Shown: positions 7,717 to 26,253 of the stretch, piece after piece
Position numbering within the stretch: position 1 is the stretch's first letter
Layout of the letters: each line of letters begins with the position of its first letter
IMG/VR virus record: IMGVR_UViG_3300033121_001571
Strand: one strand, 5' to 3'
Length of the DNA stretch: 64,000 nt
Origin: a virus
Taxonomy: Duplodnaviria > Caudoviricetes
The notes under the pieces: model-generated
What the model saw: only the letters and a program-made list of their open reading frames with translations
The model's database searches: none
What the model was told of the DNA's origin: nothing
Translations under genes and position numbers: made by a program

Positions 7717-7902
7717 CTAACTCTTCTTGCTGTAAAGATCTCTGTGCCAACCTTCACCCTTGAGTAAAAAACTAGTTCCTCCAGAGATGAGTCTTTTCAG
7801 TTTTTGACCACATTTTTCACAATATCGATCAGAATCATCACTTATGTTGTGTTCTATCTCTGTGACCGTCTGACAACTCTTACACTCGTACTCGTAGATC
7901 AC
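7717..7902 (-). CDS. FmdB-family zinc-ribbon protein
   Basis: IYEYECKSC...CEKCG..LKRLIS..SFLLKGEGW..DLY; GTG start overlaps the DnaE-E stop. Confidence 0.88.
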   Translation of the reverse strand: MIYEYECKSCQTVTEIEHNISDDSDRYCEKCGQKLKRLISGGTSFLLKGEGWHRDLYSKKS

Positions 7903-8942
7903 TCGTTTACCTCTTTTAACTTCCACGTCGTGGTGGAGCACCCAAAATTGTTTCTCTCGACCTCTGCGAGGTGCAGATTGTATAGATTCACGTTTGATTT
8001 ATCTGAGAATCCCCACACGCTAAGTCGAACTGGTTTCGCGCCGAGACCGAGTGCAGATATGACAGCATAACTCTTTTTGTTCTTTGTCATTTTGATCTCT
8101 AAAGACGTGGGAACAAACCAAACAATGTTCTTGTCACCTTCTTCAAGGGTCTCAATCGGATTGATCTCTTTTGTCTCTAGCTTAGCTAACATCTGTGGGC
8201 TGACAACAGATGTCACGTCAAAACTTCCAAATAACTCGATCTGAAACTGTGCTTGTTCTACTTTTGTCCACTCTGGAACGTTATCTCTGTAATATTCAGC
8301 TAACTCTCTCATTCTCTCCACACCAGCATACGGATTCTTTTTTGGCGATTTCTTTATCTCGTCGTTGTGTTCAATCAACACCTTGAATGCTTGGTGCCAA
8401 TTGCTGAATAATTTTCCTTGGCCCACCGCATCAAGAGAACCCAAAGCTTTTATCTTGATCAGAGTCTCTAAGACTCTTTTATTGAACTTTGAGTGTCTCC
8501 ACGTGCCGTCAGAGTTGTACAGCATGTCTTCTATATTTTTGTACGGTCTGTTCTGCAAGATCTCTTGCACAGCCGCTTCGCCGATACTCTTACAAGAGTA
8601 AAATGACGGCATGAACTTTTTCCCTGGAAGCACTGTCCATTCGTCTGAAGCATAGTTGACATCAATCTGAGCTATGTCGTAGCCCAATTGTTTGATCTCT
8701 GAAAATGCTACTGCTTTCTTTTCAGGACTGTTTAACATAGACTCAACATACGCAGTCAACCACTCCTTTTCAAAGTACGTCATCAACCACGCACACCAGT
8801 AACTGTCGATCGCATAAGCAACTGCGTGACTGTTTGAAGTCAGAACACCATTTGCTAAATAGAACTGGTGATCTGGGTGATCAACTTCAAGATCATACGT
8901 TTGGTGTTTTCCGATGGGGGTTATTGATTTGATGTTACTCAT
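7899..8942 (-). CDS. dnaE: DnaE fragment E: IntC3 (37 aa) plus C-terminal Pol III alpha (HhH and OB regions)
   Basis: MSNIKSI...YDLEV..DHQFYLANGVLTSN|SHAVAYA; IDVNYA, KSIGEAAVQEILQNRPY, NKRVLETLIK..ALGS, TKNKKSYA. Confidence 0.93.
   Translation of the reverse strand: MSNIKSITPIGKHQTYDLEVDHPDHQFYLANGVLTSNSHAVAYAIDSYWCAWLMTYFEKEWLTAYVESMLNSPEKKAVAFSEIKQLGYDIAQIDVNYASDEWTVLPGKKFMPSFYSCKSIGEAAVQEILQNRPYKNIEDMLYNSDGTWRHSKFNKRVLETLIKIKALGSLDAVGQGKLFSNWHQAFKVLIEHNDEIKKSPKKNPYAGVERMRELAEYYRDNVPEWTKVEQAQFQIELFGSFDVTSVVSPQMLAKLETKEINPIETLEEGDKNIVWFVPTSLEIKMTKNKKSYAVISALGLGAKPVRLSVWGFSDKSNVNLYNLHLAEVERNNFGCSTTTWKLKEVNE
8832..8942 (-). other. Split intein 3, C-terminal part (IntC3)
   Basis: Block F/G motifs YDLEV...HQFYLANGVLTSN followed by Ser+1. 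Confidence 0.9.
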
Positions 8943-8944
8943 CT

Positions 8945-9280
8945 TTACCTATCACAGCTGGCAATTTTGACAGGCATATTTGCTTCAAGCCACAGTGCTG
9001 CCTCAATCGCGAACTCATCTTTTTCATCGCAGCACGCAACTACTTCACAGTATGAACCAAAATCGTGTGGAAACCACTTTATCTTTAACTGCATAGATGC
9101 ATCTCTGTGCTGTCTATTTTTCTGCAAGTGTTCCCACAGTTGGTCTCGCCAAATTCGGCACTGTGATAACATCTTTGTTTTGTTGTCAGGATCAGAACTA
9201 TCTAACTGAATTGCTTCTTCACTCGGAGAACAACAACCTAGTTCTATCTGAAACATGTGAAATAACCATACTGCAGCCAC
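8945..9280 (-). CDS. Hypothetical phage protein
   Basis: ORF containing KWFPHDFGSYCEVV; true start probably MFQIELG. Confidence 0.65.
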   Translation of the reverse strand: MAAVWLFHMFQIELGCCSPSEEAIQLDSSDPDNKTKMLSQCRIWRDQLWEHLQKNRQHRDASMQLKIKWFPHDFGSYCEVVACCDEKDEFAIEAALWLEANMPVKIASCDR

Positions 9281-9303
9281 AGAAACAGTTACACTGCAAC
9301 GTG

Positions 9304-10305
9304 TTAATCTCTATAAGAATTTTTACTTTGAGCTCTTTTTGCTGCATCATTAGCAGCTTCTTCCGCTAACTTAGTGCCCCACTCTTCTTGGATACTGTCT
9401 CCAAGAACTTGCCCTTCATCAGTAAGGAAAATAAAATCACCTTCTCTGTAAACAAGACCAGAGTCAATAGCCTTTATCATCATATTGGTAAAATCCAAAA
9501 ATGCATTATGTTTAATTGTTTCGTGTTTTTCAATTTCTCTTACTTGAAGATATAGTTCTTCTTCATTATCAACGCCGTTAACGGACATCAGATATGGTAT
9601 GATCTTTTCATAGCGACTTTGTAAGTTAAGAACTTCTTCCATTGTCTGTGCAATTAAACGACCTTCATCATTTAAATCATAAATAGTGTGTTTTCCTTTT
9701 CTACCAACTGGCTCTATGTATGGTTCAAGAAATCCATACCATAATTCAGTATCACGCATCTTAAAACCAAAATGATGAAATCCATTAAATTCTTTTTCTT
9801 TTTTATACACTTCAGGTAGAGTCATGGGTCCAAATTGACTAATTATGTATAAAGGTATTTGTTCTATACTAGAATGTGTATTTACAGTCTTGGGTGTTGG
9901 CGGTTTGTTAGTTCCAATTTTTCTGATGCTAGCAAGATCGATCAGATGTCCCTTAGCAGACATACGTTCTGTTCTAAGAAATTTTTCATAATCACGCTGG
10001 TTACAACTAATATTGTTTACAATCTGCCACATAATTGAATGGTTTTTACTTTGATCTATGACTTTAACAAACTGCATTTCAACTTTACCAAACAATGTCG
10101 ATCTAGTGTTGTGTATATCTACATTCTGAATGGAGTATATAAAATCTTGCTCTATGATAAATGGCCCTTTGTTTGCATATTCTGGTGTATTTACAATGAC
10201 AACATCATAATTTTTGATGTCAGACAACGATTTATAAGATGTCTCTTGCGATTTTTCAAACGCTTCTGAGATTAGCTTCCTGATCTGACCAATTGTAGTG
10301 ATCAT
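9304..10305 (-). CDS. Hypothetical protein, paralog of 10312-11307, with winged-helix-like C-terminal repeats
   Basis: Leader MITTIGQIRKLISEA; shared GPMT, PVG.K, YDLN and LTDEGQVLGD segments. Confidence 0.8.
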   Translation of the reverse strand: MITTIGQIRKLISEAFEKSQETSYKSLSDIKNYDVVIVNTPEYANKGPFIIEQDFIYSIQNVDIHNTRSTLFGKVEMQFVKVIDQSKNHSIMWQIVNNISCNQRDYEKFLRTERMSAKGHLIDLASIRKIGTNKPPTPKTVNTHSSIEQIPLYIISQFGPMTLPEVYKKEKEFNGFHHFGFKMRDTELWYGFLEPYIEPVGRKGKHTIYDLNDEGRLIAQTMEEVLNLQSRYEKIIPYLMSVNGVDNEEELYLQVREIEKHETIKHNAFLDFTNMMIKAIDSGLVYREGDFIFLTDEGQVLGDSIQEEWGTKLAEEAANDAAKRAQSKNSYRD

Positions 10306-10311
10306 TTGTTG

Positions 10312-11307
10312 TTAAATACCCTTTGCTGTCTGTGCTAGAACGTATCCCCACAACTCCTGCGCTTTATCTCCAAGAACTTGTCCTTCATCAGTCAAGTGAT
10401 AGACTTCATCTTCATCTTCATATATGAGACCAGATTTTATAGCTTTACTGATAGCTTTGTTTAGAGACACTATGTTGAATTTTCTAAATGCAATAAATCT
10501 AGCTTGAGTATCTAATAGATCAACTTTCATTGGACCGTTGACAGACAACAAGTAAGGAATTATCAATGAAGCTCTCTCTTCAACAGACAGAGCGGTAGAG
10601 ATTGAGTTATTAGAATTTATTGGTGAAGAGTTCAGATCGTAAACAACTTCTCCGTCTTTTTTACCAACTGGTTGAAGAACATCAGTAACATACTGAAGAT
10701 TTTCATGTCGATCACCAAACCACACGTCAATAAATCCTTCATCATAAGCAGAATACTTGCCTTCAAATTCTTGAACTTTTTCCATGATCTCTCTTGCAGT
10801 CATAGGTCCATTTTGTTTGACAACATACGATATAATGTCCAACATATGACCATCAAAACTTAACTTTTGTGTTCTTGTCTCTTGGTTTCCAACCTTGATC
10901 ACATCTGATATGTCAAAAAAAGCGGACACAGTTTCTGACTCTGACGAAAACAGATCATCATACAACTCTCCAGCGCTAACGTTTTCACAAACATAACAGC
11001 GTCTGATCCTACCATTTTTGATGTTTTTTATCTGCAGCGTAAAACACTTAACTACAGGTTGTTTGCGTTGTGACTTGTTTTTGAAAACAAAATAAGAAGG
11101 TTGGTCGCCATCAGTTTCTATGTCAAGAAACACTTTACGTGATGTGTTGACAACAAACACATCATCTTTGTCAATATTGAGTCTTGTTTGTTTGAACTTG
11201 ATAAGATCTCCGTTCTTAATGTCAAACACAGATCTGTATGTTGTTTCACTCTGGTTACTCAAAGCCTCAGAAATCAATTTTCTTAATTGACCAAGAGAAG
11301 TTATCAC
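10312..11307 (-). CDS. Hypothetical protein, paralog of 9304-10305
   Basis: Leader MITSLGQLRKLISEA; shared C-terminal motifs. Confidence 0.8.
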   Translation of the reverse strand: MITSLGQLRKLISEALSNQSETTYRSVFDIKNGDLIKFKQTRLNIDKDDVFVVNTSRKVFLDIETDGDQPSYFVFKNKSQRKQPVVKCFTLQIKNIKNGRIRRCYVCENVSAGELYDDLFSSESETVSAFFDISDVIKVGNQETRTQKLSFDGHMLDIISYVVKQNGPMTAREIMEKVQEFEGKYSAYDEGFIDVWFGDRHENLQYVTDVLQPVGKKDGEVVYDLNSSPINSNNSISTALSVEERASLIIPYLLSVNGPMKVDLLDTQARFIAFRKFNIVSLNKAISKAIKSGLIYEDEDEVYHLTDEGQVLGDKAQELWGYVLAQTAKGI

Positions 11308-11338
11308 TGGACTAAATAGTCACTGAACCAGTGTCAGA

Positions 11339-11635
11339 TCACAGTATTTCTCCCCAATCACAGTCTTCATCAGGATCAACACCAATCTCATCCCACGAAG
11401 CCCACGTTGTTCCGTCGTGCATCACTTCATTCAAGTGCGTTGGTTGCAAGTTCTTCTGAAGTGCTAGATCAAATGGAATGTGAACAATCACCGTCTTGTC
11501 GGTGTCACTCATCCTCGTGACAAAACACTTTGGGATCCACACGGTGTCTTTCTTAGACACAGATATCTTGACAGCACGCTCAGATTCACGCACCAAAGTT
11601 CCCTTGAACTCGTGAAAACTGTCACTTCTTCTCAT
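11339..11635 (-). CDS. Hypothetical protein
   Basis: 98-aa ORF with ESERAV...VWIPK motif. Confidence 0.65.
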   Translation of the reverse strand: MRRSDSFHEFKGTLVRESERAVKISVSKKDTVWIPKCFVTRMSDTDKTVIVHIPFDLALQKNLQPTHLNEVMHDGTTWASWDEIGVDPDEDCDWGEIL

Positions 11636-11849
11636 CAGTGCCTATCGCTTCGATCACAAGCTGTTGTATCTTTAGAGAACGTTCTGAGTCGATTCCAAAG
11701 ATCTTCTCAGTTTCTTTCAAAGAAGCAGGTTTATTGATAACAACTTTCACACAGTTCTTAATATGTCTTGCTAAACTATCAACTTTGCTAAAACACTTGT
11801 GACACCTGTTGCACTCGAAACTGCTTGACACAACTGACTTCTTTCTCAC
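11622..11849 (-). CDS. Small C2H2/C2HC zinc-finger protein
   Basis: FECNRCHKCFSKVDSLARHIKNC. Confidence 0.6.
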   Translation of the reverse strand: MRKKSVVSSSFECNRCHKCFSKVDSLARHIKNCVKVVINKPASLKETEKIFGIDSERSLKIQQLVIEAIGTDEKK

Positions 11850-12607
11850 GTAGTTTTGATCACACTCTCTCTTGGTTTCATAAGATTGTAGAGAACTTGT
11901 TCTACGTGTTTGAACAAATCCCTGTCAAATCCACACTCTCCTTGAAAGACTCTCAACGCAGAATCAATGTTTAAAGCACGGTGAGTCTTCGGTTGCAAAC
12001 TTCGAAAACGGATGATGCTGTTCAGACAGTGCCTTGCTAAGTCTGGATCATGGGACCTTTCAATCTCTCTGCAGGCACGTTGTGCAAAAAACTCTATCTG
12101 TTGATTGTGTTCAGGTAAAAAACTCATATTTTTGCACCTTGTGATACAGTTCAACGCTTCTTCTCGCACCACTTCTACGTCTGAAGCGAGCGCGCTCACA
12201 AAAAACTCTCCAACAGCTACTTCAAAAAACGGAAGAACATCGATAAACGGATCTAGATTTCCGCAACACATGACATTTAATTGAACACCGTAATCAATTG
12301 GTGTGGGAGACGCAAACAAGAACAAAAAACTATTTTGATCAACTTTAACGTATTGATACATTGTAAACGCTAGATACGACAGCAAACCTATGTCTTTCCA
12401 ACCTGTTTTCACTAAGTGACTAAAGATAACGTAAGGCCACTCATCAAGTCTACGATTTTTACCAACAAAACACTTTAGTGCTTCTGTTGATCTGTTCTGA
12501 TTTGAAAGGTGCTCTGACCACTCTTTGCAGAGCTTATTGTATGTTTTTTCGCTGAAGATCATTGTTGAGTTAAGCAGAGATCTAAGTTGTCTGAAGACAT
12601 ACACCAA
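11846..12607 (-). CDS. Hypothetical helical protein
   Basis: ORF; likely start MIFSEK (~12562). Confidence 0.65.
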   Translation of the reverse strand: MVYVFRQLRSLLNSTMIFSEKTYNKLCKEWSEHLSNQNRSTEALKCFVGKNRRLDEWPYVIFSHLVKTGWKDIGLLSYLAFTMYQYVKVDQNSFLFLFASPTPIDYGVQLNVMCCGNLDPFIDVLPFFEVAVGEFFVSALASDVEVVREEALNCITRCKNMSFLPEHNQQIEFFAQRACREIERSHDPDLARHCLNSIIRFRSLQPKTHRALNIDSALRVFQGECGFDRDLFKHVEQVLYNLMKPRESVIKTT

Positions 12608-13701
12608 TCACTACAATAGTTATTTCCTTCACCACACGCAATAAAAGTACCTGGAATGACTTTTGAACAGTATGAATTTCCTAACTTAAACACACCAGGA
12701 CTTGGATTTTTCAAAATCTTGAACAGATTGTATATTACACGATCACTGAACTTACCTCCTTCTTTGTATGAGAATTGATCGTATGATATACGAATAAGGG
12801 TCCATCCGTGTTGCACTATGTGTTCATCAAGCAATCGATCCATATTCCTAACATCATTAAAAACTTTTTCTCCTTTTATGCGAGGTTCAAAATGAATTAT
12901 ACCATCAAATTCAACATAAATACGTGCTGTTTTATCAGCAATATCAACTTGTTTTCGATGTGATTTATTTGTAAATACACTTGATTTAACAATCTGATTA
13001 TGTTTGAATTCATAAGGACTAGCGGTTAACAACAACTCAAATAACATTAACTCTGGTTTACTGTGCCATTTAGAATGTGCGGCGAGGGTGCATTTTTCAT
13101 AGAACTCATCAAAATGAGTATTACGCCAAGCTGTCAGACGTGCTGTTCGAATTGCAAGGATCTCTGGTCGAGCTGACGTTTTTTTTGCAGTGATGCGTGA
13201 TAGTTCGCGGCCCCTTGGAGACGAATTTCTTGATGCCATAGCTTCAGCTCGGCGTTTACGTTCATTTGGATTCGCCATAACAGCAGTAGAAACTGCAACA
13301 CTCATCTTAGCCTTATATGCAGTCAAATCGTCGCCACGTTCTTTTGCACGCTTCAACCATGCAAAATTCTGACCACGTTTCTTAAACGCAAGCTGTGTAG
13401 TAAGCGAAGTGAGCTCAGCGTCTGGATATGTAGTTATGTACTCCTTCTTGCTCATGTCATGGACTTGTGTCAAGTGTTTTGTAAGAGTACGACCTATAAA
13501 TCCGCAAATTCGACAAGTAACTGTGTCGTTGGCTGAAAGAACAGTTACTAGACACGCTTTTACGTGTTTTTCGTAGGGTCGCTGGTAAGAAAAGTTCTTA
13601 CCGCATCGGTCACAACGATATTGTATCCCTTTTCGTTGATCATCCACAATGGTAGCATCTCTCCCGTTTCCTTCGTCCTGAATTTGTGATTCCACGTGCA
13701 C
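12559..13701 (-). CDS. Putative homing endonuclease (Zn fingers plus DUF559/Vsr-like PD-(D/E)xK domain), directly after IntN3
   Basis: YRCDRCGKNF...HVKAC and CRICG...KHLTQVH; SKPE...QVDIA...VEFDGIIHF...GWTLIRI. Confidence 0.8.
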   Translation of the reverse strand: MHVESQIQDEGNGRDATIVDDQRKGIQYRCDRCGKNFSYQRPYEKHVKACLVTVLSANDTVTCRICGFIGRTLTKHLTQVHDMSKKEYITTYPDAELTSLTTQLAFKKRGQNFAWLKRAKERGDDLTAYKAKMSVAVSTAVMANPNERKRRAEAMASRNSSPRGRELSRITAKKTSARPEILAIRTARLTAWRNTHFDEFYEKCTLAAHSKWHSKPELMLFELLLTASPYEFKHNQIVKSSVFTNKSHRKQVDIADKTARIYVEFDGIIHFEPRIKGEKVFNDVRNMDRLLDEHIVQHGWTLIRISYDQFSYKEGGKFSDRVIYNLFKILKNPSPGVFKLGNSYCSKVIPGTFIACGEGNNYCSDWCMSSDNLDLCLTQQ

Positions 13702-13910
13702 TTTACCTTTTCTCCAGTAGTGAGCTCTACTTCAACTAAGTCGAGAACACCGTGATCATGTTTCATGATCACGGGAATAATAATGTCATTTCCTGAAATC
13801 TCGTCTCTAGATCTGACTAGATCATTAGGGCAAACATCTTTTAACAACTTAGTCTCTCTGTAAGAGCCATCAAAATTATATATATTCAGAGGTTGTAAAA
13901 AGTACAAACT
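13560..13910 (-). other. Split intein 3, N-terminal part (IntN3, Ser1)
   Basis: Starts at SLYFL right after DnaE FNK; block B CTWNH; ORF ends with no IntC. Confidence 0.87.
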
Positions 13911-14282
13911 TTTATTGAAACCGTACCCAGCGAAATATAAGATCTTATCGTAAAGGTTGTTAGCAACATCAGCAGTGTAACCGTTCTTTATGCATCCTTG
14001 AACAAAGCTATCTCGCGTTTCTTGTGCAGCCTTCTTCGCCGCTTCACCGCCCGAGATGCTGCGCTTCATGATGGCGCGGCGAACCTCGTCACACTTGTCC
14101 TTCGGGAAGCCGGCCACCTTCTCGGCCAGTTCCATCACCTGCTCCTGAAAAATTATACAGTTGTGCACCAGAAGGCCATTTGCGAAGAAATTGTGGTTCT
14201 TCTTGACCTGGATGTCGTACACGGGCTGTGCAGGAGCACGCTTGATTGCACGGATCTTGATGGGAACTACATCAGGCATCAT
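13560..14282 (-). CDS. dnaE: DnaE fragment D: IntC2 + 83-aa extein + IntN3
   Basis: PVYDIQV..NHNFFANGLLVHN|CIIFQEQVMELA...FAGYGFNK|SLYFLQ...VELTTGEKVKCTWNHKF. Confidence 0.92.
   Translation of the reverse strand: MMPDVVPIKIRAIKRAPAQPVYDIQVKKNHNFFANGLLVHNCIIFQEQVMELAEKVAGFPKDKCDEVRRAIMKRSISGGEAAKKAAQETRDSFVQGCIKNGYTADVANNLYDKILYFAGYGFNKSLYFLQPLNIYNFDGSYRETKLLKDVCPNDLVRSRDEISGNDIIIPVIMKHDHGVLDLVEVELTTGEKVKCTWNHKFRTKETGEMLPLWMINEKGYNIVVTDAVRTFLTSDPTKNT
13999..14030. repeat. 32-bp direct repeat, copy 1 (copy 2 at 15429-15460)
   Basis: tgaacaaagctatctcgcgtttcttgtgcagc is identical at both sites. Confidence 0.95.
14160..14282 (-). other. Split intein 2, C-terminal part (IntC2)
   Basis: VYDIQV..NHNFFANGLLVHN followed by Cys+1. 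Confidence 0.92.
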
Positions 14283-15181: not shown

Positions 15182-15712
15182 CTAAATTGTCCTCAAGTTG
15201 TGTGGGTAGTTCACAGCCTCAGACCCCCAGACGCGTCTCACCACATAACCTCGAGCCTCAGCCGCGCGGGTGAATGATTCATCGAGTCGATACTGTCGCT
15301 TCATCTTGGACGTCAGTTCGTGCTTTTCTGGATTGCCGTGCCAGTAGTCGCCATCGAACTCTACGAGAATGTTCTCATTTGGAACGTAGAAATCGAACTC
15401 ATGGTTGATGCCTTCAACGTGGCATCTGTGAACAAAGCTATCTCGCGTTTCTTGTGCAGCTTTCTTTGCAGCCTCGCCGCCAGAGATGCTTCGTTTCATG
15501 ATAGCTCTGCGAACTTCGTCACACTTATCTTTTGGAAAACCCGCAACTTTTTCTGCGAGTTCCATTACGCTTTCTTGAAATATCAAACAATTATGAACTA
15601 AAATAGAATTTGCAAAAAAATTACCATTCTTCTTGATTTGAAGATCGTAAACGGGTTGTGAAGGAACACGTTTGACCGCACGGATTTTGACGGGAACTAC
15701 GTTAGACATCAC
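15182..15712 (-). CDS. Alternative fragment D': IntC2' + ~53 aa DnaE fused to a DUF559/Vsr-like nuclease domain
   Basis: VYDLQI..NGNFFANSILVHN|CLIFQESVMEL...RDSFV, then HEFDFYVPNENILVEFDGDYWHGNP...GYVVRRVWGSE. Confidence 0.85.
   Translation of the reverse strand: MMSNVVPVKIRAVKRVPSQPVYDLQIKKNGNFFANSILVHNCLIFQESVMELAEKVAGFPKDKCDEVRRAIMKRSISGGEAAKKAAQETRDSFVHRCHVEGINHEFDFYVPNENILVEFDGDYWHGNPEKHELTSKMKRQYRLDESFTRAAEARGYVVRRVWGSEAVNYPHNLRTI
15429..15460. repeat. 32-bp direct repeat, copy 2
   Basis: Identical to 13999-14030; marks the DnaE/nuclease fusion point. Confidence 0.95.
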
Positions 15713-16528: not shown

Positions 16529-17413
16529 TTATCTGTTCCAATCTGATCTGTCTTTGATGTGTGCTTCAATCACAATGACTTTTCCCCTGATAGCATCTTC
16601 AAAATCTTTTCTTGCAGTTGAGACAATATTTTTTACATTAGAAAGAAGCTCATCTAACTTGGGATCACCCGTTTCATTATAGTGAAATCCTCGAGTGTCA
16701 AGAATAGCCTGAGTAACGATTTCTGATATTACGTCTACCCAGTTGTAATTTCTAAACGCATTAGTAACAGCTGATTTCATTGTCAGCGCAGACACAATTT
16801 TTGGCCAAAAATAAAATTTGAAATAATCGTTCATATATTCGTTTTTTTCATTTTTGAAAGCATCAATGAACATTTTGTTGATAACTTTCATATACTTTCC
16901 CATTACAGAAATATTTGAAGTTTCATCGATCATAGCGTGTATAATCATCCAAGGTGTAGAAAGAAATCCCTTTTGAAGATGTTCAACTAGTGGAACAAGG
17001 ATCGCAGCACCTTGTTTTCTTGCTTCTTCTAATTGAAGAATTCTGTTTGATGGAACTCCAAATCTAGCTAAAATACTAGCATCACTATATCTTTCACGCG
17101 TTCTATCAGATGTTCTTCCCCTGTTTGATGCCCACCATGTAAATGCTGGTACTACGTAGATTGGAACTGACAGGTTCTTGTATAATTTAATCGCACTGTT
17201 GTAAAAGTTTTTGTTGTCAAAAAATTTCTTGACTTCTTTTCTATCTTTTTCGACGTCAGCATCACTTGAATGATTCTTAGTTTGTAAGACATAGTCTGAT
17301 TTTGCATTAACAGTCCAATCTTCTTCTCCAGCTGGCTCAATTCCAGCTAAAGGAGCTTCTGAGATCACTGAAGATCTGATAAGAGATCGGAGTTCGCTAA
17401 GTTTGATTTTCAC
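16529..17413 (-). CDS. Hypothetical protein, paralog 1 (MKIKLSELRSLI leader)
   Basis: Extensive identity with 18110-18997; GTG at 17413 chosen from TATTTA spacing (ORF track start 17419). Confidence 0.85.
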   Translation of the reverse strand: MKIKLSELRSLIRSSVISEAPLAGIEPAGEEDWTVNAKSDYVLQTKNHSSDADVEKDRKEVKKFFDNKNFYNSAIKLYKNLSVPIYVVPAFTWWASNRGRTSDRTRERYSDASILARFGVPSNRILQLEEARKQGAAILVPLVEHLQKGFLSTPWMIIHAMIDETSNISVMGKYMKVINKMFIDAFKNEKNEYMNDYFKFYFWPKIVSALTMKSAVTNAFRNYNWVDVISEIVTQAILDTRGFHYNETGDPKLDELLSNVKNIVSTARKDFEDAIRGKVIVIEAHIKDRSDWNR

Positions 17414-17432
17414 AATCACTAAATATCAACAC
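17312..17432. repeat. 121-bp exact direct repeat, copy 1 (copy 2 at 18896-19016)
   Basis: Base-by-base comparison; covers the promoter motif, the paralog 5' end and the last codons of IntN2. Confidence 0.93.
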
Positions 17433-17711
17433 TTCATCACTGTCTGTCAAAGACCCAGCGTTTACCCACCCACGGTTCTTTGTCATGACTAAGTGGTCTT
17501 CAGTGACAGTGAGTCGTTTTCCGTCCTCTAACTCTATCTCGATCACGTCTCTTACACCGTTCGACACAGCAGCTACAACCACGTCACTCTCTATTTCAGC
17601 AGATTCCTCGTTGTATGACGGGAGAGTGACGCCGACCATCTGCTTATCAACGATTTCCTTGATAGTGATCTCACCGTTGTCTGTCATCACTCTTGAGTCA
17701 CCAGTTAAGCA
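17397..17711 (-). other. Split intein 2, N-terminal part (IntN2)
   Basis: Block A CLTGDSRV; block B TEDH. Confidence 0.93.
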
Positions 17712-18074
17712 ACTGTAAGTCTTCTCAAGAATCTTATTGATTCTATCGTCACCCCAGTCCATCTGCTTGTTGTTATTCTTAGCGTCAATATACAACTTGT
17801 CTACGTCAGCAGCAAGTGGGCCAGGACGATAGATCGAAGTCAGAGTCGCAATGTCAATGATGTTCTCTGGTTTTGCTTTGACAAACAGGCGCTGAGCGCC
17901 CTTGCCAGTGACTTGAAATATGCCAGCAAACTTTGCTTCTTCATAGACCTTATAGACTTCTGGATCTTCCAGATCCATCTTTGATGGATGCATGTGTTCG
18001 CTGTGCCACTCTTTGATCTCATCAAAAGAGATCTTATCATTTGCAACGTTGTTGACTGACTTTACTTTTGCCAC
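17397..18074 (-). CDS. dnaE: DnaE fragment C: short IntC-like strand + extein + IntN2
   Basis: GIFQ...TSIYRPGPL...KILEKTYS|CLTGDSRV...IELEDGKRLTVTEDHLVMT. Confidence 0.92.
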   Translation of the reverse strand: MAKVKSVNNVANDKISFDEIKEWHSEHMHPSKMDLEDPEVYKVYEEAKFAGIFQVTGKGAQRLFVKAKPENIIDIATLTSIYRPGPLAADVDKLYIDAKNNNKQMDWGDDRINKILEKTYSCLTGDSRVMTDNGEITIKEIVDKQMVGVTLPSYNEESAEIESDVVVAAVSNGVRDVIEIELEDGKRLTVTEDHLVMTKNRGWVNAGSLTDSDEVLIFSDCENQT

Positions 18075-19748: not shown

Positions 19749-20087
19749 CTAATGCTTTCGTTTCTTATCGAAGTGTTTTACAACACAACTTTTGCAGTAA
19801 CAAGTCCATTTCGATTGATCGCTAATAAAGTTTATGATAGAACCAGACGTTCTAAAGATAACAACTGATTTAACACAGACATCAAACATTGTAACTCTCA
19901 CAAAAAACTTGTGTGGATGGTTTGCAAATCTGTTACGATTAGGTAGATCAGACACTGAAATCACATAACCATAACAAATAGTTATGTTCTCTAAACTCTC
20001 ATTTTGTGTCTTTCTAAGAACTCTGACTCTACCATGTGGGTGAACTCTTATGAGAGTGTTAATTGTAGATGTAATGTTCTTAATCAT
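19749..20087 (-). CDS. Small PH...CxCxxC family protein (array member 4)
   Basis: RVHPHG...GYVISV...MFDV...CYCKSC. Confidence 0.68.
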   Translation of the reverse strand: MIKNITSTINTLIRVHPHGRVRVLRKTQNESLENITICYGYVISVSDLPNRNRFANHPHKFFVRVTMFDVCVKSVVIFRTSGSIINFISDQSKWTCYCKSCVVKHFDKKRKH

Positions 20088-20111
20088 TTTTAACGTTTTT
20101 CAAAACTAACG

Positions 20112-20429
20112 CTAATAAAAGATCTTACAACAAACGTTTGTGTACAGATCTATGCAATAAGAACAGCCACACCCAACAATGTTTTTATTGTTGTTGTGTG
20201 CATATCTCATAGCACTGATCAACTGAAATTCAATTAACAAATTTTCACTCAGATCAAAAATAGTGATCGCTGACTTTGTTTTAGACAGAGAACAAATTGA
20301 AACAACGATACCAAAAAATATCTGTCCACGAGGGAAAATTGACTTCTCACGAGAAACACCTTTTGAAATAAAGCCAGTTTCTCCAAAACAATGAGGAGCA
20401 AAAAATTTGAGATCACCAACTTGAGTCAT
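20112..20429 (-). CDS. Small PH...CxCxxC family protein (array member 3)
   Basis: FAPHC...GIVVSI...IFDL...CGCSYC. Confidence 0.65.
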   Translation of the reverse strand: MTQVGDLKFFAPHCFGETGFISKGVSREKSIFPRGQIFFGIVVSICSLSKTKSAITIFDLSENLLIEFQLISAMRYAHNNNKNIVGCGCSYCIDLYTNVCCKIFY

Positions 20430-20438
20430 TGACTACCT

Positions 20439-20753
20439 TTAAGGTATTGGCAAAACGCTTTTACAACTCAAACAAGTACACCTTAAAACATTGTTCACAG
20501 AAACAAGTTCACTCGGCGTAGAAAACTTCATAACGTTCATGTTCATAAATGAAAACATCGTGATCTTGTCTTGCGTTCGAGAAAGAACAAGACCAACGTG
20601 AATGAACGTTGGATTGTGTAAGTACAACGAATACCAAAGAGATAGATCGTGGGGTATTATCTGAATAATCTGTCCCACAGCAAAAACGTGTCCAAGCACT
20701 TTGGCGCTCAATGATTTGTGTGCCTCTACTAAATACTCATACACTCGAAACAC
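20439..20753 (-). CDS. Small PH...CxCxxC family protein (array member 2)
   Basis: IIPHD...GLVLS...MFSF...CTCLSC. Confidence 0.62.
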   Translation of the reverse strand: MFRVYEYLVEAHKSLSAKVLGHVFAVGQIIQIIPHDLSLWYSLYLHNPTFIHVGLVLSRTQDKITMFSFMNMNVMKFSTPSELVSVNNVLRCTCLSCKSVLPIP

Positions 20754-21040
20754 TCACACTTAATCACGCTTAACACGTTATCATAAAGTGATTGTTCAGT
20801 TATCGAAAACTGCACTAACTTACCTAATTTGATGTCTAAAAAAACAACAAGTACCATACCCTCAGACTTCCACTCAGTGTTCAAAACAATACCAATTAAA
20901 GCTGAATAAGGATGAAGAGTAAATGTTTTAAACGTTTTTTCTCCAATGATATCAATCTCACTGTCGTGAGGATGAACTTTGATCACTTTAGCAATAATTC
21001 TATTTTTCACAATTTTCTCACATAGACAACGTTTTTGCAA
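20729..21040 (-). CDS. Small PH...CxCxxC family protein (array member 1)
   Basis: KVHPHD...GIVLN...FLDI...CECFEC; start probably GTG near 21010. Confidence 0.62.
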   Translation of the reverse strand: MQKRCLCEKIVKNRIIAKVIKVHPHDSEIDIIGEKTFKTFTLHPYSALIGIVLNTEWKSEGMVLVVFLDIKLGKLVQFSITEQSLYDNVLSVIKCECFECMSI

Positions 21041-22827
21041 CCATAGATCTTAAATAACTTGTGTTCAAATGCTAGACTCTCTTGAGAAGCTATGTTTGGA
21101 ATAGAACGCACAAGAAAACGATCAAGTCTGTGGTGACAATCTGTCCACCAAAATCTCGGTTTTGTCTCGTGACTCACAACAAAACCTGAACTCAAATAAC
21201 CGTTACCAGAACCACCCAAACGTGTATCACGATATGTCATGATTCTGTCAAAAGAGTTTTCTTTAGCCCAAGTTGCGGCAGCGCTGATCAGTTTTGACAT
21301 TCCTCCCACAACTACCGTGTTCTTCAAAAAAGCAACTCTAGCAATCTCTAGAGTCTTATCACTCCATTTTTTGATCTGGTGTGGCTTTCTAACAGTCAGT
21401 GTTGCTACAGTCTCGCCATTTTCTGTCTCAAGAATAAATCCTTTTGAAGCTGGCACGTTACCATCGATGTGATTTTCAACAAGAAATTCCGCAACAGATG
21501 CTGGATGAACTGCACGTACTCTGAGCCTTCGAGCAAAGATCTTCTTTGCTTTTTGCAGTTTGACTCTGATCATGCTCTTGATGATCTCTCGCTTGGTGAG
21601 ATCTTGCCATTCGTCTTCAAACACATGTAACAAAGAAGTGTTTGTTGTAGAGGCTAGATCTGACTTTTTCTGGTGATACTCACTGTCTGATATCACAGCA
21701 TCAGAGTGCCAGTATAATCCATTACACTCAATCGCAAATCTCTGATCACTTGACAGTATGTCTAGCTCTAACGGAGCTATTCGTTTTCGATCATTAAGCG
21801 TTGCTCCCGGATCGAACGTCAAGACGTATTCATAGATCTCACTCTGCCACCTTGAAATGACACGTGGATTGCAAGTTGAACACAGCTTTCCCTTACATAG
21901 AGATGACAGTTTTACTTGACAAGTCTCTCCGCACTCTTTACAAGAGACAACAATAAGACTTTGAAATCCAGCAACTTCATATGAATCAACATTCCATTTA
22001 TCTTTCACCGATTCAAGTCTCTCAGCGATCATCTCATGAGTGATTCTAAACGGTGAATTCACTCCCAACTCTATGAGTCTTTTTCTTGTCTGAATTATCT
22101 GTTGTTTGACTCTGTCAGCACAAGCTTTGTGTACCCAGTGACTGGATTTGACACTCTCACTGAGGTTTTCAGAACGTCTCTTTATTCTATCATCAGTCTC
22201 AGACGTTTGTCCGTGTTGAGTCCAGTGCTTTTCTTTCTTCCATTTTTCTGTGAGTGTCTTAGATATCTGAACAGCCGCTTGAGCTACTGAAGCACTGTTT
22301 TCTTTCGTCTGCCCAGAGCGCCAGTGACCGTTCTTTTTTATGAAATCTCTGCACTTTGTTGCAGCGATTCTCACAGACTCGCTCGTCTGTTCTGTCAGAC
22401 CCTTGTTCCAAGCTGGAGTGTTATTTCGTTTTCTAGTTTCGGCTCCACGAAGCTGAGAGTTTTTCTTGCTACACTTTCCGCAGAGCCTCTCATAACCAGA
22501 CTGAAATGACAAGAACTTGACAGGCCCAAAACACTGAGTGCACGGTCCTGGGTGAGAGACAAACAACAAATAAGCATCTTCAGCTAAGACACTGTGAACT
22601 TTTGCTAAGTGAGCTCGAACACTGTTAAGACTTGCTTTCATCTGTTGAGAGCAGATCGGACACTTCGAAAGAAGTGATATCGTCGGAGGGCCTGAGGTCC
22701 CTCGCGAAAACTTTTCCTCTTGCGGTGATAACTTCTTGGTCTCCAAACATTCTTTTTGTTGATCCGTCTTCAAGACAGATCTCAATCCATCCTCGTCGTT
22801 GTCTTTCATCTTTGATGATGAGTTCAA
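21007..22827 (-). CDS. Putative Hef-like homing endonuclease (Zn fingers, PD-(D/E)xK domain, C-terminal GNAT-like domain)
   Basis: CPIC..HLAKVH, PAWNKGLT repeats, ELDI...AIECNGLYWHS, HVFEDEW, EIAR...VVGGMSKL; start uncertain. Confidence 0.8.
   Translation of the reverse strand: MNSSSKMKDNDEDGLRSVLKTDQQKECLETKKLSPQEEKFSRGTSGPPTISLLSKCPICSQQMKASLNSVRAHLAKVHSVLAEDAYLLFVSHPGPCTQCFGPVKFLSFQSGYERLCGKCSKKNSQLRGAETRKRNNTPAWNKGLTEQTSESVRIAATKCRDFIKKNGHWRSGQTKENSASVAQAAVQISKTLTEKWKKEKHWTQHGQTSETDDRIKRRSENLSESVKSSHWVHKACADRVKQQIIQTRKRLIELGVNSPFRITHEMIAERLESVKDKWNVDSYEVAGFQSLIVVSCKECGETCQVKLSSLCKGKLCSTCNPRVISRWQSEIYEYVLTFDPGATLNDRKRIAPLELDILSSDQRFAIECNGLYWHSDAVISDSEYHQKKSDLASTTNTSLLHVFEDEWQDLTKREIIKSMIRVKLQKAKKIFARRLRVRAVHPASVAEFLVENHIDGNVPASKGFILETENGETVATLTVRKPHQIKKWSDKTLEIARVAFLKNTVVVGGMSKLISAAATWAKENSFDRIMTYRDTRLGGSGNGYLSSGFVVSHETKPRFWWTDCHHRLDRFLVRSIPNIASQESLAFEHKLFKIYGCKNVVYVRKL
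22625..22792 (-). other. Degenerate Hint/intein half-domain (no block A; block-B TxxH replaced by FGDQ)
   Basis: IEICLEDGSTKRMFGDQEVITARGKVFARDLRPSDDI aligns by eye to IntN2 IEIELEDGKRLTVTEDHLVMTKNRGWVNAGSLTDSDEV. Confidence 0.7.
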
Positions 22828-23512
22828 TTGTTCTCTCTACCAGTCTAAGCGTTTCAAGGCCAAGCAGATCATATTTAATGAAATTTCCGATCGCCTCTAG
22901 ATGTTTATAATTTACTCCCTCTACCCAAGGACTCTGAGGTTCCCCTTTTGATGTGATAAGAGGCATCTTATCAGGAAGATCGTCAGCTATTAGCACTCCA
23001 CCCGCGTGACGACCCAAAGAACGACCCTGTTTGAACAAGACATTCATAGACTCACCCACTTCAGGGTGCTTGTCAATGAAGTCTTTGAAAGGCTTATCGT
23101 ACTTCAGAGCATCTTCATACGTGAGAACAAACAAGTTCTTGTCATCACCGTGCTTTGTTGTTGCTTTTCTGACGCTTTGTTCAACTGTCTTCGTGGCAGC
23201 ATTGACTTCTTCGAACGGTATGCCATAGAACTTGCTGAGATCTTTTAGAAGAGATTTGACTTTAAATGCGTTGACATTTGAGATCGGAACAACGTTTTCA
23301 TATCCAAAGAAATTTCTCAGCTGATCAAGCACGAGATCTCTGTTAGCAAGATCAGAATCGATATCGGGAGACCCAGAGTTATGCGTTAAAACCCAATTGG
23401 TGTTGTCTTGTGATATCCAAAATGTATGATTATTCTCAACTTCTATATCAATAAGACGTGTACTTTCTTCAACTATTTGAATCGATTCTATCTTAGCTGT
23501 GTTTGTTAACAA
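22625..23512 (-). CDS. dnaE: DnaE fragment B: IntC1 + catalytic palm region + degenerate half-intein tail
   Basis: IDIEVENNHTF...VLTHN|SGSPDIDSD; GRHAGGVLI; IKYDLLGLETL. Confidence 0.93.
   Translation of the reverse strand: MLTNTAKIESIQIVEESTRLIDIEVENNHTFWISQDNTNWVLTHNSGSPDIDSDLANRDLVLDQLRNFFGYENVVPISNVNAFKVKSLLKDLSKFYGIPFEEVNAATKTVEQSVRKATTKHGDDKNLFVLTYEDALKYDKPFKDFIDKHPEVGESMNVLFKQGRSLGRHAGGVLIADDLPDKMPLITSKGEPQSPWVEGVNYKHLEAIGNFIKYDLLGLETLRLVERTIELIIKDERQRRGWIEICLEDGSTKRMFGDQEVITARGKVFARDLRPSDDITSFEVSDLLSTDESKS
23378..23512 (-). other. Split intein 1, C-terminal part (IntC1, 45 aa)
   Basis: KIESI...DIEVENNHTF...THN followed by Ser+1. Confidence 0.92.
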
Positions 23513-24482
23513 GACTTTCCTTATGTTTAGAAATTAAATGTTTTGTATTCTTGTAATTACGGTTTTCTAAATTTGGAATTACCTTATAAAGACCTTCATT
23601 ACGTAATGAAGCATAAAAATCTTCCATATAGATAACATCTATAATAATTCCTTGTGCAATTAACAAATTGCGTATTTTCATATTAGAATTTAACAATTTT
23701 GAAAACAGTGAATCACTTTCTCTAACACCTTTTAATTCAATATAACGATTTTCATTGGGAAAGAAAAAATCAGGCGTATAACAAACATCCCTACCTTCAC
23801 TTGTTACATGAAAAGTTTTGCTTTCATAAAGCGGTACATTTGATTTATAGATACAATATCGATAAAAATCTGCCTCAAATGAACTTTTGAAATAAGGACT
23901 ATTCTCAATATCTAAACGCCATCCAGATCTACCATTTATATGGATTGCTATCATTCCTTTTGATTGAGCTTCAAAAGTACATTTTTTACTACAAAATCTC
24001 ATTTTATAACTCTGCTTAGTAGATTTTACTAAGCCACATACTTGGCACACACATTTTATTTTGTTTTCTTTACTCTTTTGCGTACATTTAGCACTACAAT
24101 ACTTTCTTTTTTGATTTTTTGATTCAAAAATCACATTACAATAATTACACGTCATTTGAACAATTGGATTCTTAGTTAGAGTCTTAGAAGTTTCTATTTT
24201 AGAACACGCTCTAGAACAAAATTTTCGCCCCAATTTAGATTGGGGCACAAAGTATTCTTTGTTACATAACAGACAATTTTTCATAAACCGACCTACAATA
24301 AAATTTCTAACGCTAGAGCGCTTTTGTTTGTTTTTAACTTGACACTCAGTAGAACAGTACATTCTAGCTAACTTGCTAGTTGAACCTTTACCCACGCCAG
24401 AGCACTCAATTTGAAATATTTTTTCACAATATTTACAAGTTTTCTTTACTATGATCATAGTGGTACGTATACAACAGATCAT
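23493..24482 (-). CDS. Putative free-standing homing endonuclease between IntN1 and IntC1
   Basis: Four CxxC...(F/Y)CS..C zinc-ribbon repeats; FKSSFE...YTPDF...IELKG (PD-(D/E)xK); overlaps both flanking dnaE fragments. Confidence 0.82.
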   Translation of the reverse strand: MICCIRTTMIIVKKTCKYCEKIFQIECSGVGKGSTSKLARMYCSTECQVKNKQKRSSVRNFIVGRFMKNCLLCNKEYFVPQSKLGRKFCSRACSKIETSKTLTKNPIVQMTCNYCNVIFESKNQKRKYCSAKCTQKSKENKIKCVCQVCGLVKSTKQSYKMRFCSKKCTFEAQSKGMIAIHINGRSGWRLDIENSPYFKSSFEADFYRYCIYKSNVPLYESKTFHVTSEGRDVCYTPDFFFPNENRYIELKGVRESDSLFSKLLNSNMKIRNLLIAQGIIIDVIYMEDFYASLRNEGLYKVIPNLENRNYKNTKHLISKHKESLVNKHS

Positions 24483-24738
24483 CAGTTGTCAATTCATGTG
24501 TTCGTTTCTTTATGAATTTTCCATCCCCAGCACAAACTAACCACTCATGATTTTCAGAACACTTAAATGTCGTACCATTTACCTTAATAAGGTACGTTTT
24601 TGTAACATGTTGCACAGTTTTATATGTTACTCTTTGTAAAGAACCGTCTTGTGTCAAGACTTTATCTCCAACTTTAATTTCATCAAGAGACGTAGTTTTA
24701 TTTTTTTCTAAAAGAACACGAGTATTTGGTTCTAAACA
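24433..24738 (-). other. Split intein 1, N-terminal part (IntN1)
   Basis: Block A CLEPNTRV...IKVGDKVLT; block B CSENH. Confidence 0.93.
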
Positions 24739-26253
24739 CCTATGAACAGAGAGAAATCTGCTAAACGGTAGGTCCCACTTGATTGGATCTAAGTCTGTGA
24801 TCTCTAAAACATAGTTAACAAGTGAACCCGCACCAGAGCCTCTACCAGGACCAACTAGAGTGACGCTTCTAGCAAGTTCCATGATCTTCTGATAAGAGAT
24901 GAAATAATCTGAGTTTTTCATCTGCTTGATGACAGACAACTCTTCTTTAAGTCTCTCTACGTACTCTTCTTTCTCTGCAAGGCCCTTCTTGATCATGCCT
25001 TCTTTGCACAGTTTACACAAGTGACTGAAAGACGAAGAGTCTTCTGGGACAAGTCTTTTGACAGGGAACTTTGGCGTCCTATCAGGTTCAACAACGCCAA
25101 TCACTTGGTGAGCAATGTCGTGTGTTCTCTCAATCGCTGCAGCGATAACTTCGTCATCATAGAACGAAGTGCCCTCTTTAGAACGCAAGTACTCATCCCA
25201 CATCTGAGAAGCGTTCTTTGGATACAATTCACACTTCAAATCATCTTTAGACTTCGGAAGAGAGTCAGGTGAGTATGTCTTGTAGTTCATAAACCCAAGC
25301 TTCTTGTATAACTCTCTTTCTTTCCAGACGTTTGGATTATAGTAGTGAGCATCACCAGTGACCACAAGTTGATCTGTGACACCGTTTCTCTTGGCAAATT
25401 CTAGTATTGATCTGTTTATCAGATTCTGAGCAAGAATTCTGTTAAATTGCAGTTCAAGATAACAGTTGCCCTTTCCAACAATATCTGTCATCAGATCATA
25501 GAAGTTTCCAACTGCTGTAACACACTTCTCCATAAGAGACGGATCGTCCAACAACGACTGGTCCATAGAATCAAACTTGATCTTCTGAAGTTCTTGAAAC
25601 ACGTTATAACTTGGAAGTCCACCCAAGCAAGCAGAGGTGACAATGATGTCACCATCTTTTGCAGCCTCACGAAGGATGCGAGAATCAATTCTGGGGAACC
25701 TATAAAAACCCTTTAAGTAGCCTAAAGCTACTGCCTGAAACATTTTCTGGAGCCCACGTGATGACTTTGGCAGTACCACCAGGTGATGGCGGCGGTTGAT
25801 TGGGTTGAAGTGCTTTGTCGTCTTTGTCTCTTCTTCATCTTCAATAGTCAAAGCATTTGAAACTTCAATGTCTTCAGTCTCATCATTTTGATCAACAACA
25901 GCAATGAGCTTCGTCTGAAGCTCTTCTTGTTTTTTCAGCAGTTTTGCTGCTGTTTTTTTCTCTGTTGCCGCTAGATCGTGTTCCTCTTTGTCTCTCTGCC
26001 ACTGTTGTAGATCAGGGTGAAAATATGCTTCTACGCCTGGGATATACTTGAAGTTTTCCCCCGCCGATTTCCACTTTTCAACAAATAATTGAGCGTGAGC
26101 ATAAGAGTTGCAGTGACCGTGCTCAGTGATTGCGTGTGCGTCTAGACCGTTTTCTTTGCAAAACTTGAAGTGTTCGTCTGGGTATCCCAAACCATCAAAT
26201 GCAGAAAACCCTGTGTGGGCGTGAAGTCCAACGAATTTCTTGGGAAATGGCAC
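24433..26253 (-). CDS. dnaE: DnaE fragment A: PHP domain + N-terminal polymerase region + IntN1
   Basis: FVGLHAHTGFSAFDG, ITEHG, GVEAY, SACLGG, TGDAHY, GPGRGSGAGSLV, FSRFLSVHR|CLEPNT; GTG start at 26253 assumed (ORF track 26307). Confidence 0.95.
   Translation of the reverse strand: MPFPKKFVGLHAHTGFSAFDGLGYPDEHFKFCKENGLDAHAITEHGHCNSYAHAQLFVEKWKSAGENFKYIPGVEAYFHPDLQQWQRDKEEHDLAATEKKTAAKLLKKQEELQTKLIAVVDQNDETEDIEVSNALTIEDEEETKTTKHFNPINRRHHLVVLPKSSRGLQKMFQAVALGYLKGFYRFPRIDSRILREAAKDGDIIVTSACLGGLPSYNVFQELQKIKFDSMDQSLLDDPSLMEKCVTAVGNFYDLMTDIVGKGNCYLELQFNRILAQNLINRSILEFAKRNGVTDQLVVTGDAHYYNPNVWKERELYKKLGFMNYKTYSPDSLPKSKDDLKCELYPKNASQMWDEYLRSKEGTSFYDDEVIAAAIERTHDIAHQVIGVVEPDRTPKFPVKRLVPEDSSSFSHLCKLCKEGMIKKGLAEKEEYVERLKEELSVIKQMKNSDYFISYQKIMELARSVTLVGPGRGSGAGSLVNYVLEITDLDPIKWDLPFSRFLSVHRCLEPNTRVLLEKNKTTSLDEIKVGDKVLTQDGSLQRVTYKTVQHVTKTYLIKVNGTTFKCSENHEWLVCAGDGKFIKKRTHELTTDDLLYTYHYDHSKENL

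Follow-up and report, generated by a model that had tools for sequence, protein, structure and literature searches.

A phage DnaE polymerase encoded in five genes, with three split inteins and a degenerate fourth

The dnaE locus

The DNA analysed here (the window) is a stretch of 64,000 nucleotides from the IMG/VR virus record IMGVR_UViG_3300033121_001571, and its subject is a DnaE-type DNA polymerase that it encodes in five genes. These colinear open reading frames (ORFs), here called A to E, all lie on the minus strand and carry consecutive parts of DnaE, just as the original prediction held. Their Pfam domains follow in order, and together they tile the full-length DnaE model NF004226 (1146 positions), with A at 4-402, B at 402-600, C at 572-680, D at 676-752, and E at 752-1009. 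None of the five pieces reaches the whole-protein cut-off of that model, as is expected for fragments. It is likely, judging from sequence comparison, that this dnaE was broken four times by elements composed of an intein and a homing endonuclease, that three of the breaks are mended by protein trans-splicing, and that the outcome is a two-chain enzyme in which a fused A and B (AB) works with a fused C, D, and E (CDE). The five ORFs and the portions of DnaE that they contribute (exteins; lengths in amino acids, aa) are as follows.

24433-26253, minus strand: ORF A
22625-23512, minus strand: ORF B
17397-18074, minus strand: ORF C
13560-14282, minus strand: ORF D
7899-8942, minus strand: ORF E
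24739..26253, minus strand: extein of fragment A, 505 aa, PHP domain and first part of the palm (Pfam PHP, DNA_pol3_alpha 2-103)
22805..23377, minus strand: extein of fragment B, 191 aa, palm with PDIDSD and KYDLLGL (DNA_pol3_alpha 101-260)
17712..18044, minus strand: extein of fragment C, 111 aa (121 with its head), fingers with GIFQ and YRPGP (DNA_pol3_finger 9-116)
13911..14159, minus strand: extein of fragment D, 83 aa, end of the fingers up to GFNK (DNA_pol3_finger 113-166)
7902..8831, minus strand: extein of fragment E, 310 aa, SHAVAY, the HhH region, and the C-terminal part (HHH_6)

The motifs of DnaE can be read directly in these pieces. SPDIDSD and KYDLLGL are found in B, YRPGP in C, and GFNK/SH across D and E (a slash marks a point of insertion). 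The catalytic roles of PDxDxD and of the Asp in K-x-D-x-L-G-L are presumably those that they have in E. coli DnaE. ORF A starts with GTG at 26253, after a terminator-like hairpin (26334-26309), and the only strong terminator on the minus strand lies upstream of A. ORF B starts with TTG and has a Shine-Dalgarno-like motif, AAGGAAAG.

Do the exteins add up to a whole polymerase? For comparison, relatives were gathered in two scans as 104 IMG/VR phage loci of the same DnaE clade, numbered from L001 onward, of which 90 are complete, and twelve pieces of the window were placed on them by tblastn. In global alignments with the uninterrupted genes of L040 and L027, the joined exteins are complete, and taking out the inteins restores contiguous motifs at exactly the three junctions that had been predicted, RFLSVHR/SGSPDID, KTYS/CIIFQEQ, and GFNK/SHAVAY. 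The sole surplus of the window over these two genes is a run of 64-70 residues at the B/C junction. Extein lengths of 505, 191, 111, 83, and 310 agree with the anticipated total of about 1200 aa, and the exteins cover positions 4-1009 of the 1146 in NF004226 with no gap. The A extein is 72% identical to that of L001.

Three split inteins

The N-terminal (IntN) and C-terminal (IntC) intein halves are distributed by junction, with intein 1 at A/B, intein 2 at C/D, and intein 3 at D/E, so that D has a half at either end. Hidden Markov models (HMMs) of inteins, run on each end of the pieces, place an IntN in A, C, and D and an IntC in B, D, and E, as expected.

24436..24738, minus strand: IntN1, 101 aa, Cys1, block B CSENH (allele profile matches gp41-1; Pfam Hint-type matches sub-threshold)
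23378..23512, minus strand: IntC1, 45 aa, ends THN, then Ser+1 (local IntC HMM, 59.7 bits)
17400..17711, minus strand: IntN2, 104 aa, Cys1, TEDH (TIGR01445, 55.5 bits, above cut-off)
14160..14282, minus strand: IntC2, 41 aa, ends VHN, then Cys+1 (TIGR01443, 40.3 bits, above cut-off)
13563..13910, minus strand: IntN3, 116 aa, Ser1, TWNH (related to Npu DnaE IntN; curated model 18.3 vs a threshold of 24.5)
8832..8942, minus strand: IntC3, 37 aa, ends TSN, then Ser+1 (TIGR01443, 19.3 bits, above cut-off; local HMM, 68.8 bits)

All three inteins are of the class-1 type in sequence and carry the residues that splicing calls upon. The nucleophile at position 1 directly follows the N-extein and is Cys in A, Cys in C, and Ser in D, the boundaries being set by intein-free alleles. 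Block B (T/S-x-x-H) reads SENH, TEDH, and TWNH and is invariant or nearly so among alleles. Blocks F and G, the terminal Asn, and the +1 nucleophile are present in every case (THN/S, VHN/C, and TSN/S). The penultimate residue of intein 3 is Ser, not His, and this is so in all of its alleles.

Each intein can be tied to a different characterized family. A profile of ten same-site alleles of intein 1 matches the gp41-1 intein (6riz_A, E 1.8e-11), the nearest solved relative of intein 2 is the NrdJ-1 split intein (8ubs_A, E 3.7e-9), and IntN3 is related to the IntN of Npu DnaE (E 1.6e-4). Across the ten alleles of intein 1, C1, L2, C60, S61, H64, and W66 are kept, and the IntC1 alleles conserve LIDIEV..HTF..LTHN followed by Ser or Thr. 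Those of IntN3 start with SL and keep CT..HKF, while those of IntC3 conserve QTYDLE..H.DHQ.YL.NG.L.SN/SH. In inteins 1 and 3, the catalytic positions are all retained in the alleles of other loci despite identities of 26-66%.

The residue that follows each intein is also informative. At site 1, the +1 residue is Ser or Thr in 16/16 intein-bearing alleles, compared with 10/83 intein-free ones, which mostly have Glu, Lys, Gln, or Val. The residue at site 2 is Cys in 10/10 alleles with the intein vs 24/88 without. Ser is the native residue at site 3, being found in 8/8 intein alleles and 71/86 intein-free alleles. The +1 nucleophile therefore tracks intein presence at two of the three sites (1 and 2). 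Strain-level variation can be read from L105, whose gene D differs from that of the window by 17.5 synonymous and 3.5 non-synonymous differences (ratio of non-synonymous to synonymous rates, pN/pS, 0.05), and the codon changes between strains within IntC2 number 9 synonymous and 1 non-synonymous. Taken together, the catalytic conservation, the +1 pattern, and the strain pN/pS support maintenance of the inteins by selection.

Could the three pairs react with one another? Pairwise identity is 20-27% among the three IntN halves and 31-37% among the three IntC halves, and, with low identity and three different characterized families, cross-reaction among them appears unlikely. A six-frame scan of the 64 kb with local HMMs found no further IntN and one extra IntC, which lies in the ORF at 15182-15712 (described below).

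The B/C junction

Five pieces need four joins, and the fourth is where the original prediction of one DnaE rebuilt by three split inteins falls short; its three canonical inteins and its double-ended D stand, while the B/C junction appears dead to splicing. Two short segments occupy the place of an intein there.

22628..22804, minus strand: tail of B, 59 aa, remnant of the C-terminal half of an IntN (tail profile, hhalign, structure model)
18045..18074, minus strand: head of C, 10 aa, MAKVKSVNNV (likened by eye to the first IntC beta-strand)

A break at this position recurs in at least 11 distinct loci, with exteins 45-85% identical to those of the window. The tails of these loci are 47-62 residues long, and 10 loci retain the head pattern M-[AS]-K-[IV]-[TK]-S. 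What are these tails? A profile built from 12 of them matches residues 60-106 of the NrdJ-1 intein (8ubs_A, E 4.6e-6), a stretch that corresponds to the C-terminal half of that intein's IntN and reaches the natural split point, and an hhalign comparison with IntN sequences returned the same region with a probability of 90%. An AlphaFold2 (AF2) model of the tail has five strands and a mean predicted local distance difference test score (pLDDT) of 74; the top 11 Foldseek matches listed for it are inteins, as are most of the top 25, with E-values that are all >=0.1 for so short a query. The head of C resembles the starts of IntC1 (AKIESIQIV) and IntC3 (SNIKSITPI) by eye, its length being too short for statistics. 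A prediction of the tail and head as a complex scored 0.17, against a mark of 0.32, and was used neither way.

None of the catalytic apparatus is left. The tail of B aligns only to IntN residues ~60-105, with F..Q in place of T..H and no block A, and the head of C is followed by Ala-Asn-Asp, with no blocks F or G. In all of the B/C loci (at least 11), the position-1 nucleophile, TxxH, blocks F and G, the terminal Asn, and the +1 nucleophile are absent. B/C would be unable to splice, since nothing is left of its IntN but the C-terminal half and nothing of its IntC but the first strand, and it is concluded from these alignments that the junction is a degenerate split intein incapable of ligation. 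The tail is nonetheless conserved. In L001, it is kept with no endonuclease gene in the gap, and an overlapping reading frame therefore does not account for its conservation.

Two other candidates for a working B/C junction were rejected. A group I or group II intron, or another RNA, finds no Rfam match in window positions 7000-27000, and the 286-nt gap of L001 gave only a sub-threshold match to gyrA RNA that was taken as chance. The Cys in "ICLEDG" of the B tail could be imagined as the Cys1 of an atypical, short IntN; it aligns in the middle of IntN with "EYCLEDGS" of Npu, and other loci have Leu, Phe, or Ile in its place.

Interruptions among the relatives

How common is such fragmentation in this clade? 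Among the 90 complete loci, 61 have no interruption, 19 have one, five have two, three have three, one has five (L028), and one has six (L041). The insertion sites across the clade are A~205, A471, A504 (site 1), B~121, B/C, C55, C121 (site 2), and D83 (site 3). In L028 (3539-14971), DnaE is encoded in six genes, with the four breaks of the window and, at A471, a further split intein, so that an extein of just 33 residues (A472-504) lies between an IntC and IntN1. The six mapped interruptions of L041 (2039-15733) leave the pieces in the same order as in the window and L028. One L041 ORF consists of IntC1, a 7-residue extein (SGAPDID), and then a Cys-starting intein placed inside the catalytic PDID motif. 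The L041 record spans 309 kb, is 91% complete, and gives no DNA_pol3_alpha signal besides that of the fractured locus. More widely, D-like fragments that carry both an IntC and an IntN fall into >60 clusters in public metagenomes.

Genes in the gaps and probable traces of homing

The spaces between the dnaE pieces hold endonuclease-like genes, together with a chimeric ORF (D').

23493..24482, minus strand: endonuclease-like gene in the A/B gap, 329 aa, zinc-ribbon repeats and a C-terminal PD-(D/E)XK-like motif (phrog_1271 "HNH endonuclease," E 7.9e-16)
21007..22827, minus strand: homing-endonuclease gene in the B/C gap, ~555-606 aa, zinc finger and Vsr-like ECNGLYWHS core (phrog_3339 "homing endonuclease," E 5.4e-57)
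12559..13701, minus strand: endonuclease-like gene after IntN3, 380 aa, C2H2 and Ros/MucR zinc fingers, Vsr-like VEFDGIIH core (Pfam ROS_MUCR; weak phrog_559)
15182..15712, minus strand: D' chimera, 176 aa, second copy of IntC2, 52 D extein residues, and an 86-aa Vsr-like nuclease core (Pfam finger and intein matches)

Free-standing genes for predicted nucleases thus separate the intein halves at A/B (329 aa) and D/E (380 aa) and the intein remnants at B/C (606 aa). A phmmer search of the PDB with the three proteins returned nothing useful; the nuclease type of the 329-aa protein is assigned by motifs only, the PDB offering a weak match to T7 endonuclease I. The A/B gap is of the classic kind, 0.9 kb with a single endonuclease-like gene, and both L028 and L041 have an orthologue in the same place. 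The 380-aa gene likewise has orthologues in the D/E gap of these two loci. Five more ORFs follow it in the window, including two adjacent paralogues (9304-10305 and 10312-11307, minus strand; 31% identity, E 1e-38).

In the B/C gap, an endonuclease of the zinc-finger/Vsr-like type, 531-606 aa long, directly follows the tail in the window, in L003 (L070), and in L041. L028 has a different type in this gap (8720-9760), with NUMOD1, NUMOD3, and I-TevI DNA-binding domains, which shows that endonuclease genes have been turned over at the same break. Behind its Vsr-like core, the window's protein has a weak C-terminal similarity to Mom-like and GNAT proteins (Pfam Mom, 0.0018; phrog_1384, 8.5e-9), a combination that is unusual yet lies wholly within PHROG 3339. 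The gap measures 4.5 kb and contains eight ORFs, of which one is the 606-aa endonuclease gene, six are arranged in tandem and ~100 aa long, and one is a gene of 297 aa. The six tandem ORFs (19041-21040, minus strand) have Cys-rich C termini and no Pfam or PHROG match.

The C/D gap contains a 296-aa paralogue of the 297-aa gene, two small ORFs, and a G+C-rich island. The two paralogues that flank C (16529-17419 and 18110-19003, minus strand, ~296 aa) match no family and are ~79% identical as DNA. A 121-nt block is exactly identical between 17312-17432 and 18896-19016 and also codes for the last residues of IntN2; it looks like the product of recent gene conversion or recombination. The island (14000-16000) has a G+C content of 47.6%, vs ~38%, and matches the C/D gap of L028, with its 142-aa and 160-aa genes.

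D' lies between C and D, where L028 encodes an intact intein-2 endonuclease; the C/D gap of the window retains only a truncated nuclease core. The DNA repeat in D' is 77% identical to 13992-14281, and 50 of its 52 extein residues are those of D. Its IntC2-like half ends VHN/C, with the block F His replaced by Gly, and its C-terminal part shares 78% identity with residues 191-276 of the 276-aa C2H2/Vsr-like endonuclease of L028. D' is found in four assemblies of the same phage population and forms one 90% cluster only, so it looks recent and lineage specific. If expressed, it could, speculatively, splice to fragment C and produce a dead-end chimera of fingers and nuclease.

Extein identity is a patchwork. 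The D extein is 93-98% identical to those of L001, L002, L028, and L041, and IntC2 and IntC3 are 86-94% identical to those of L028, L041, and L078, while the A and E exteins of genomes that share this near-identical D extein, IntC2, or IntC3 are only 42-72% identical. In the strain comparison, strong divergence (synonymous rate, pS, 0.42 in g160) marks a tract that extends from genes g142 and g160 across IntC2 to the first part of the D extein, and the flanks of this tract are near-identical. Patchwork and diverged tract both fit gene conversion around the junctions, that is, coconversion during homing. Since endonuclease genes occupy the gaps and extein identity is very high beside the inteins, homing would appear both to have created the breaks and to be spreading them still.

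The proposed enzyme and its alternatives

How might a working polymerase arise from these parts? Four breaks by combined intein and homing-endonuclease elements would have left dnaE as five same-strand genes over 18 kb. After translation, IntN1 would pair with IntC1, IntN2 with IntC2, and IntN3 with IntC3, and trans-splicing would yield an A-B protein (~755 aa, including the 59-aa tail) and a C-D-E protein (~514 aa), D being spliced at both ends. With B/C not ligating, the mature enzyme is probably two chains. The palm and PHP domain would reside on AB and the fingers and HhH region on CDE, the two being held together at their native domain interface, perhaps with help from the dead half-intein pair as a docking clasp. 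A more ambitious version is put forward tentatively: the dead half-intein has been domesticated as a clasp of the polymerase halves, on a protein where three natural split inteins (four or more in relatives) also operate together and are mutually orthogonal, one of them having Ser1 and Ser+1 and no catalytic cysteine, and D' is perhaps a competing partner for C.

Several observations weigh against the two-chain, trans-spliced enzyme. No clear ribosome-binding site was found before A or C. IntN1 and IntC1, taken alone, fall below every curated intein threshold, with Pfam matches that are sub-threshold, and charge complementarity (an acidic IntN with a basic IntC) is seen in pair 2 only (-14 vs +4). 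The IntC2-like half of D' could divert fragment C. The search for a second dnaE in the phage's own genome covered 64 kb of a 284-kb contig, and a 400-aa ORF (48954-50156, minus strand) has a family-A DNA polymerase domain (E 1.8e-9), so that a second polymerase in this phage is possible. This ORF is preceded by two others, of 950-1013 aa, that match no family.

Are the tail and head at B/C anything more than scars? They may be inert, with AB and CDE associating through the native palm-fingers interface or otherwise having no need of them, which is rather unlikely. The remnants have no catalytic block whatsoever, and tail identity between loci is 20-53%, lower than that of the adjacent extein. 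On the other side, tail length, strand pattern, and the positions of G and D residues are kept across loci with exteins only 45-70% identical, the tail persists in L001, which has lost the endonuclease gene, its structure model is that of a folded intein subdomain, and tails on the split NrdA of phage Aeh1 have been shown to be essential (PMC3045599). At the opposite extreme, all four junctions would be covalent, with B/C mended by a cryptic intein, RNA splicing, or ribosomal bypass to give one chain of ~1200 aa. The likeness of "ICLEDG" in the window's tail to an intein start speaks for this, but its Cys, as mentioned, aligns mid-IntN and varies among loci, neither IntC blocks F and G nor a +1 nucleophile precede the C extein, no intron family is represented in this region or, in L001, in its 286-nt gap, and the gap of the window is 4.5 kb long with eight ORFs; a single chain is very improbable.

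The remaining alternatives concern the locus as a whole. The fractured dnaE could be a decaying relic, with replication left to the family-A ORF, an unseen second dnaE, or a host enzyme. The DNA_pol_A domain at 48954-50156, the limit of the readable DNA to 64 kb of 284 kb, and the truncation of the intein-2 endonuclease into D' can all be cited in its favor. Against it, all five ORFs are open, PDIDSD, KYDLLGL, YRPGP, and FNKSH are intact, and the pN/pS of gene D between strains is 0.05; divergent relatives retain the same layout, and L041, at 91% completeness, is without another dnaE. Decay is rated as improbable. Least credible of all is that the five-piece layout is an assembly chimera. Repeats do flank fragment C, and D' does duplicate part of D, but the order C, D', D is colinear over 10461-19619 in four assemblies made independently of each other (from three JGI samples and an SRA run; 95-99.6% identity) and for that reason is not an assembly artifact, and L028 and L041 share the order of the pieces. 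The two-chain enzyme, AB plus CDE, remains the favored reading.

Comparison with known systems

This layout is not unique. It belongs to the "fractured genes" described by Dassa, London, Stoddard, Schueler-Furman, and Pietrokovski in 2009 (PMC2677866), albeit in extreme form. Among their examples are three fractured DnaE loci with differing insertion points, one piece of which has an extra in-frame IntC. The assertion in the original prediction that there is normally one split per protein was an understatement, given that DnaE piece with its second intein half and the IMG/VR relatives with up to five or six interruptions. As in the fractured genes, an essential replication gene is broken at a split intein, a free-standing and often Vsr-like endonuclease gene lies in between, and the ends of the ORFs overlap. 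The window differs from those loci in that (i) the gene is visible in its entirety, with three split inteins plus a dead fourth, (ii) the gaps have grown to 3-4.6 kb with unrelated genes, and (iii) one endonuclease has been truncated into a chimera. What it would add is a full in-context case (three split inteins plus a conserved dead fourth), enlarged gaps, and a chimeric decoy ORF.

The B/C junction has a parallel of its own. In phage Aeh1, NrdA is split into NrdA-a and NrdA-b by mobE and is not religated; its assembly depends on the C- and N-terminal tails that the insertion produced (Crona et al. 2011, PMC3045599). Here too the enzyme is essential, a mobile endonuclease has split it, and B/C is not religated, but the tails in the window are recognizably derived from a split intein, and their role is putative. 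The conserved dead half-intein may therefore offer a case of what becomes of a split intein after catalysis is lost, whether scar or docking module.

In several respects, intein 3 recalls the cyanobacterial enzyme. It interrupts the same host protein, its IntN is related to that of Npu, and D and E of the window can also be aligned with NF007079 and NF005616, the models of cyanobacterial DnaE-N and DnaE-C. The split DnaE intein of cyanobacteria (Ssp and Npu DnaE) was reportedly described by Wu, Hu, and Liu in 1998. Its insertion point in Ssp DnaE is AEY/CFNKSH, and intein 3 of the window, at GFNK/SH, lies four residues downstream of it. Intein 3 also has Ser1 and Ser+1, where the cyanobacterial split DnaE has Cys, and its endonuclease gene is still present. 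Finally, the cyanobacterial protein has one split, as opposed to several in the window. Ser at both nucleophile positions could make intein 3 relevant to the supply of cysteine-less split inteins, which are described as scarce in PMC12707363.

Engineers have arrived at a similar arrangement. gp41-1, NrdJ-1, and other orthogonal split inteins have been combined in a one-pot assembly (Pinto et al. 2020, PMC7090010), in which, as here, several split inteins join pieces in order, and the window has relatives of two of them, gp41-1 and NrdJ-1. Unlike that assembly, the window's arrangement is natural and acts on a native enzyme, with its orthogonality predicted from sequence. It may thus represent a natural, in-context example of ordered multifragment protein ligation, a polymerase made from five gene products with three split inteins. 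In an incomplete library, the literature search turned up no report of a natural protein joined by three split inteins, or of a conserved dead split-intein pair or docking, beyond Dassa 2009 and Crona 2011. The clade as a whole forms an allelic series at >=7 insertion sites, a pool of candidate orthogonal split inteins with their native junctions, and the identity patchwork at the junctions documents what would be homing-driven gene conversion among giant phages.

The phage

To which phage does this locus belong? A megablast search with 5 kb of the window matched no named phage, and protein matches to named phages were <=33% identical. A 40-mer taken from the window had no match in IMG/VR. The D protein is recorded from a single contig of 284,379 bp, which makes this an uncultivated giant phage. 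A scan of the window for sigma-70 promoters gave matches at chance level. The window looks like phage DNA in its gene content, which includes RecA, a DnaB-type helicase, a flap endonuclease, ribonucleotide reductase, polynucleotide kinase, thymidylate synthase, and a DNA methylase. Its genes lie almost entirely on the minus strand, and its G+C content is ~38%.

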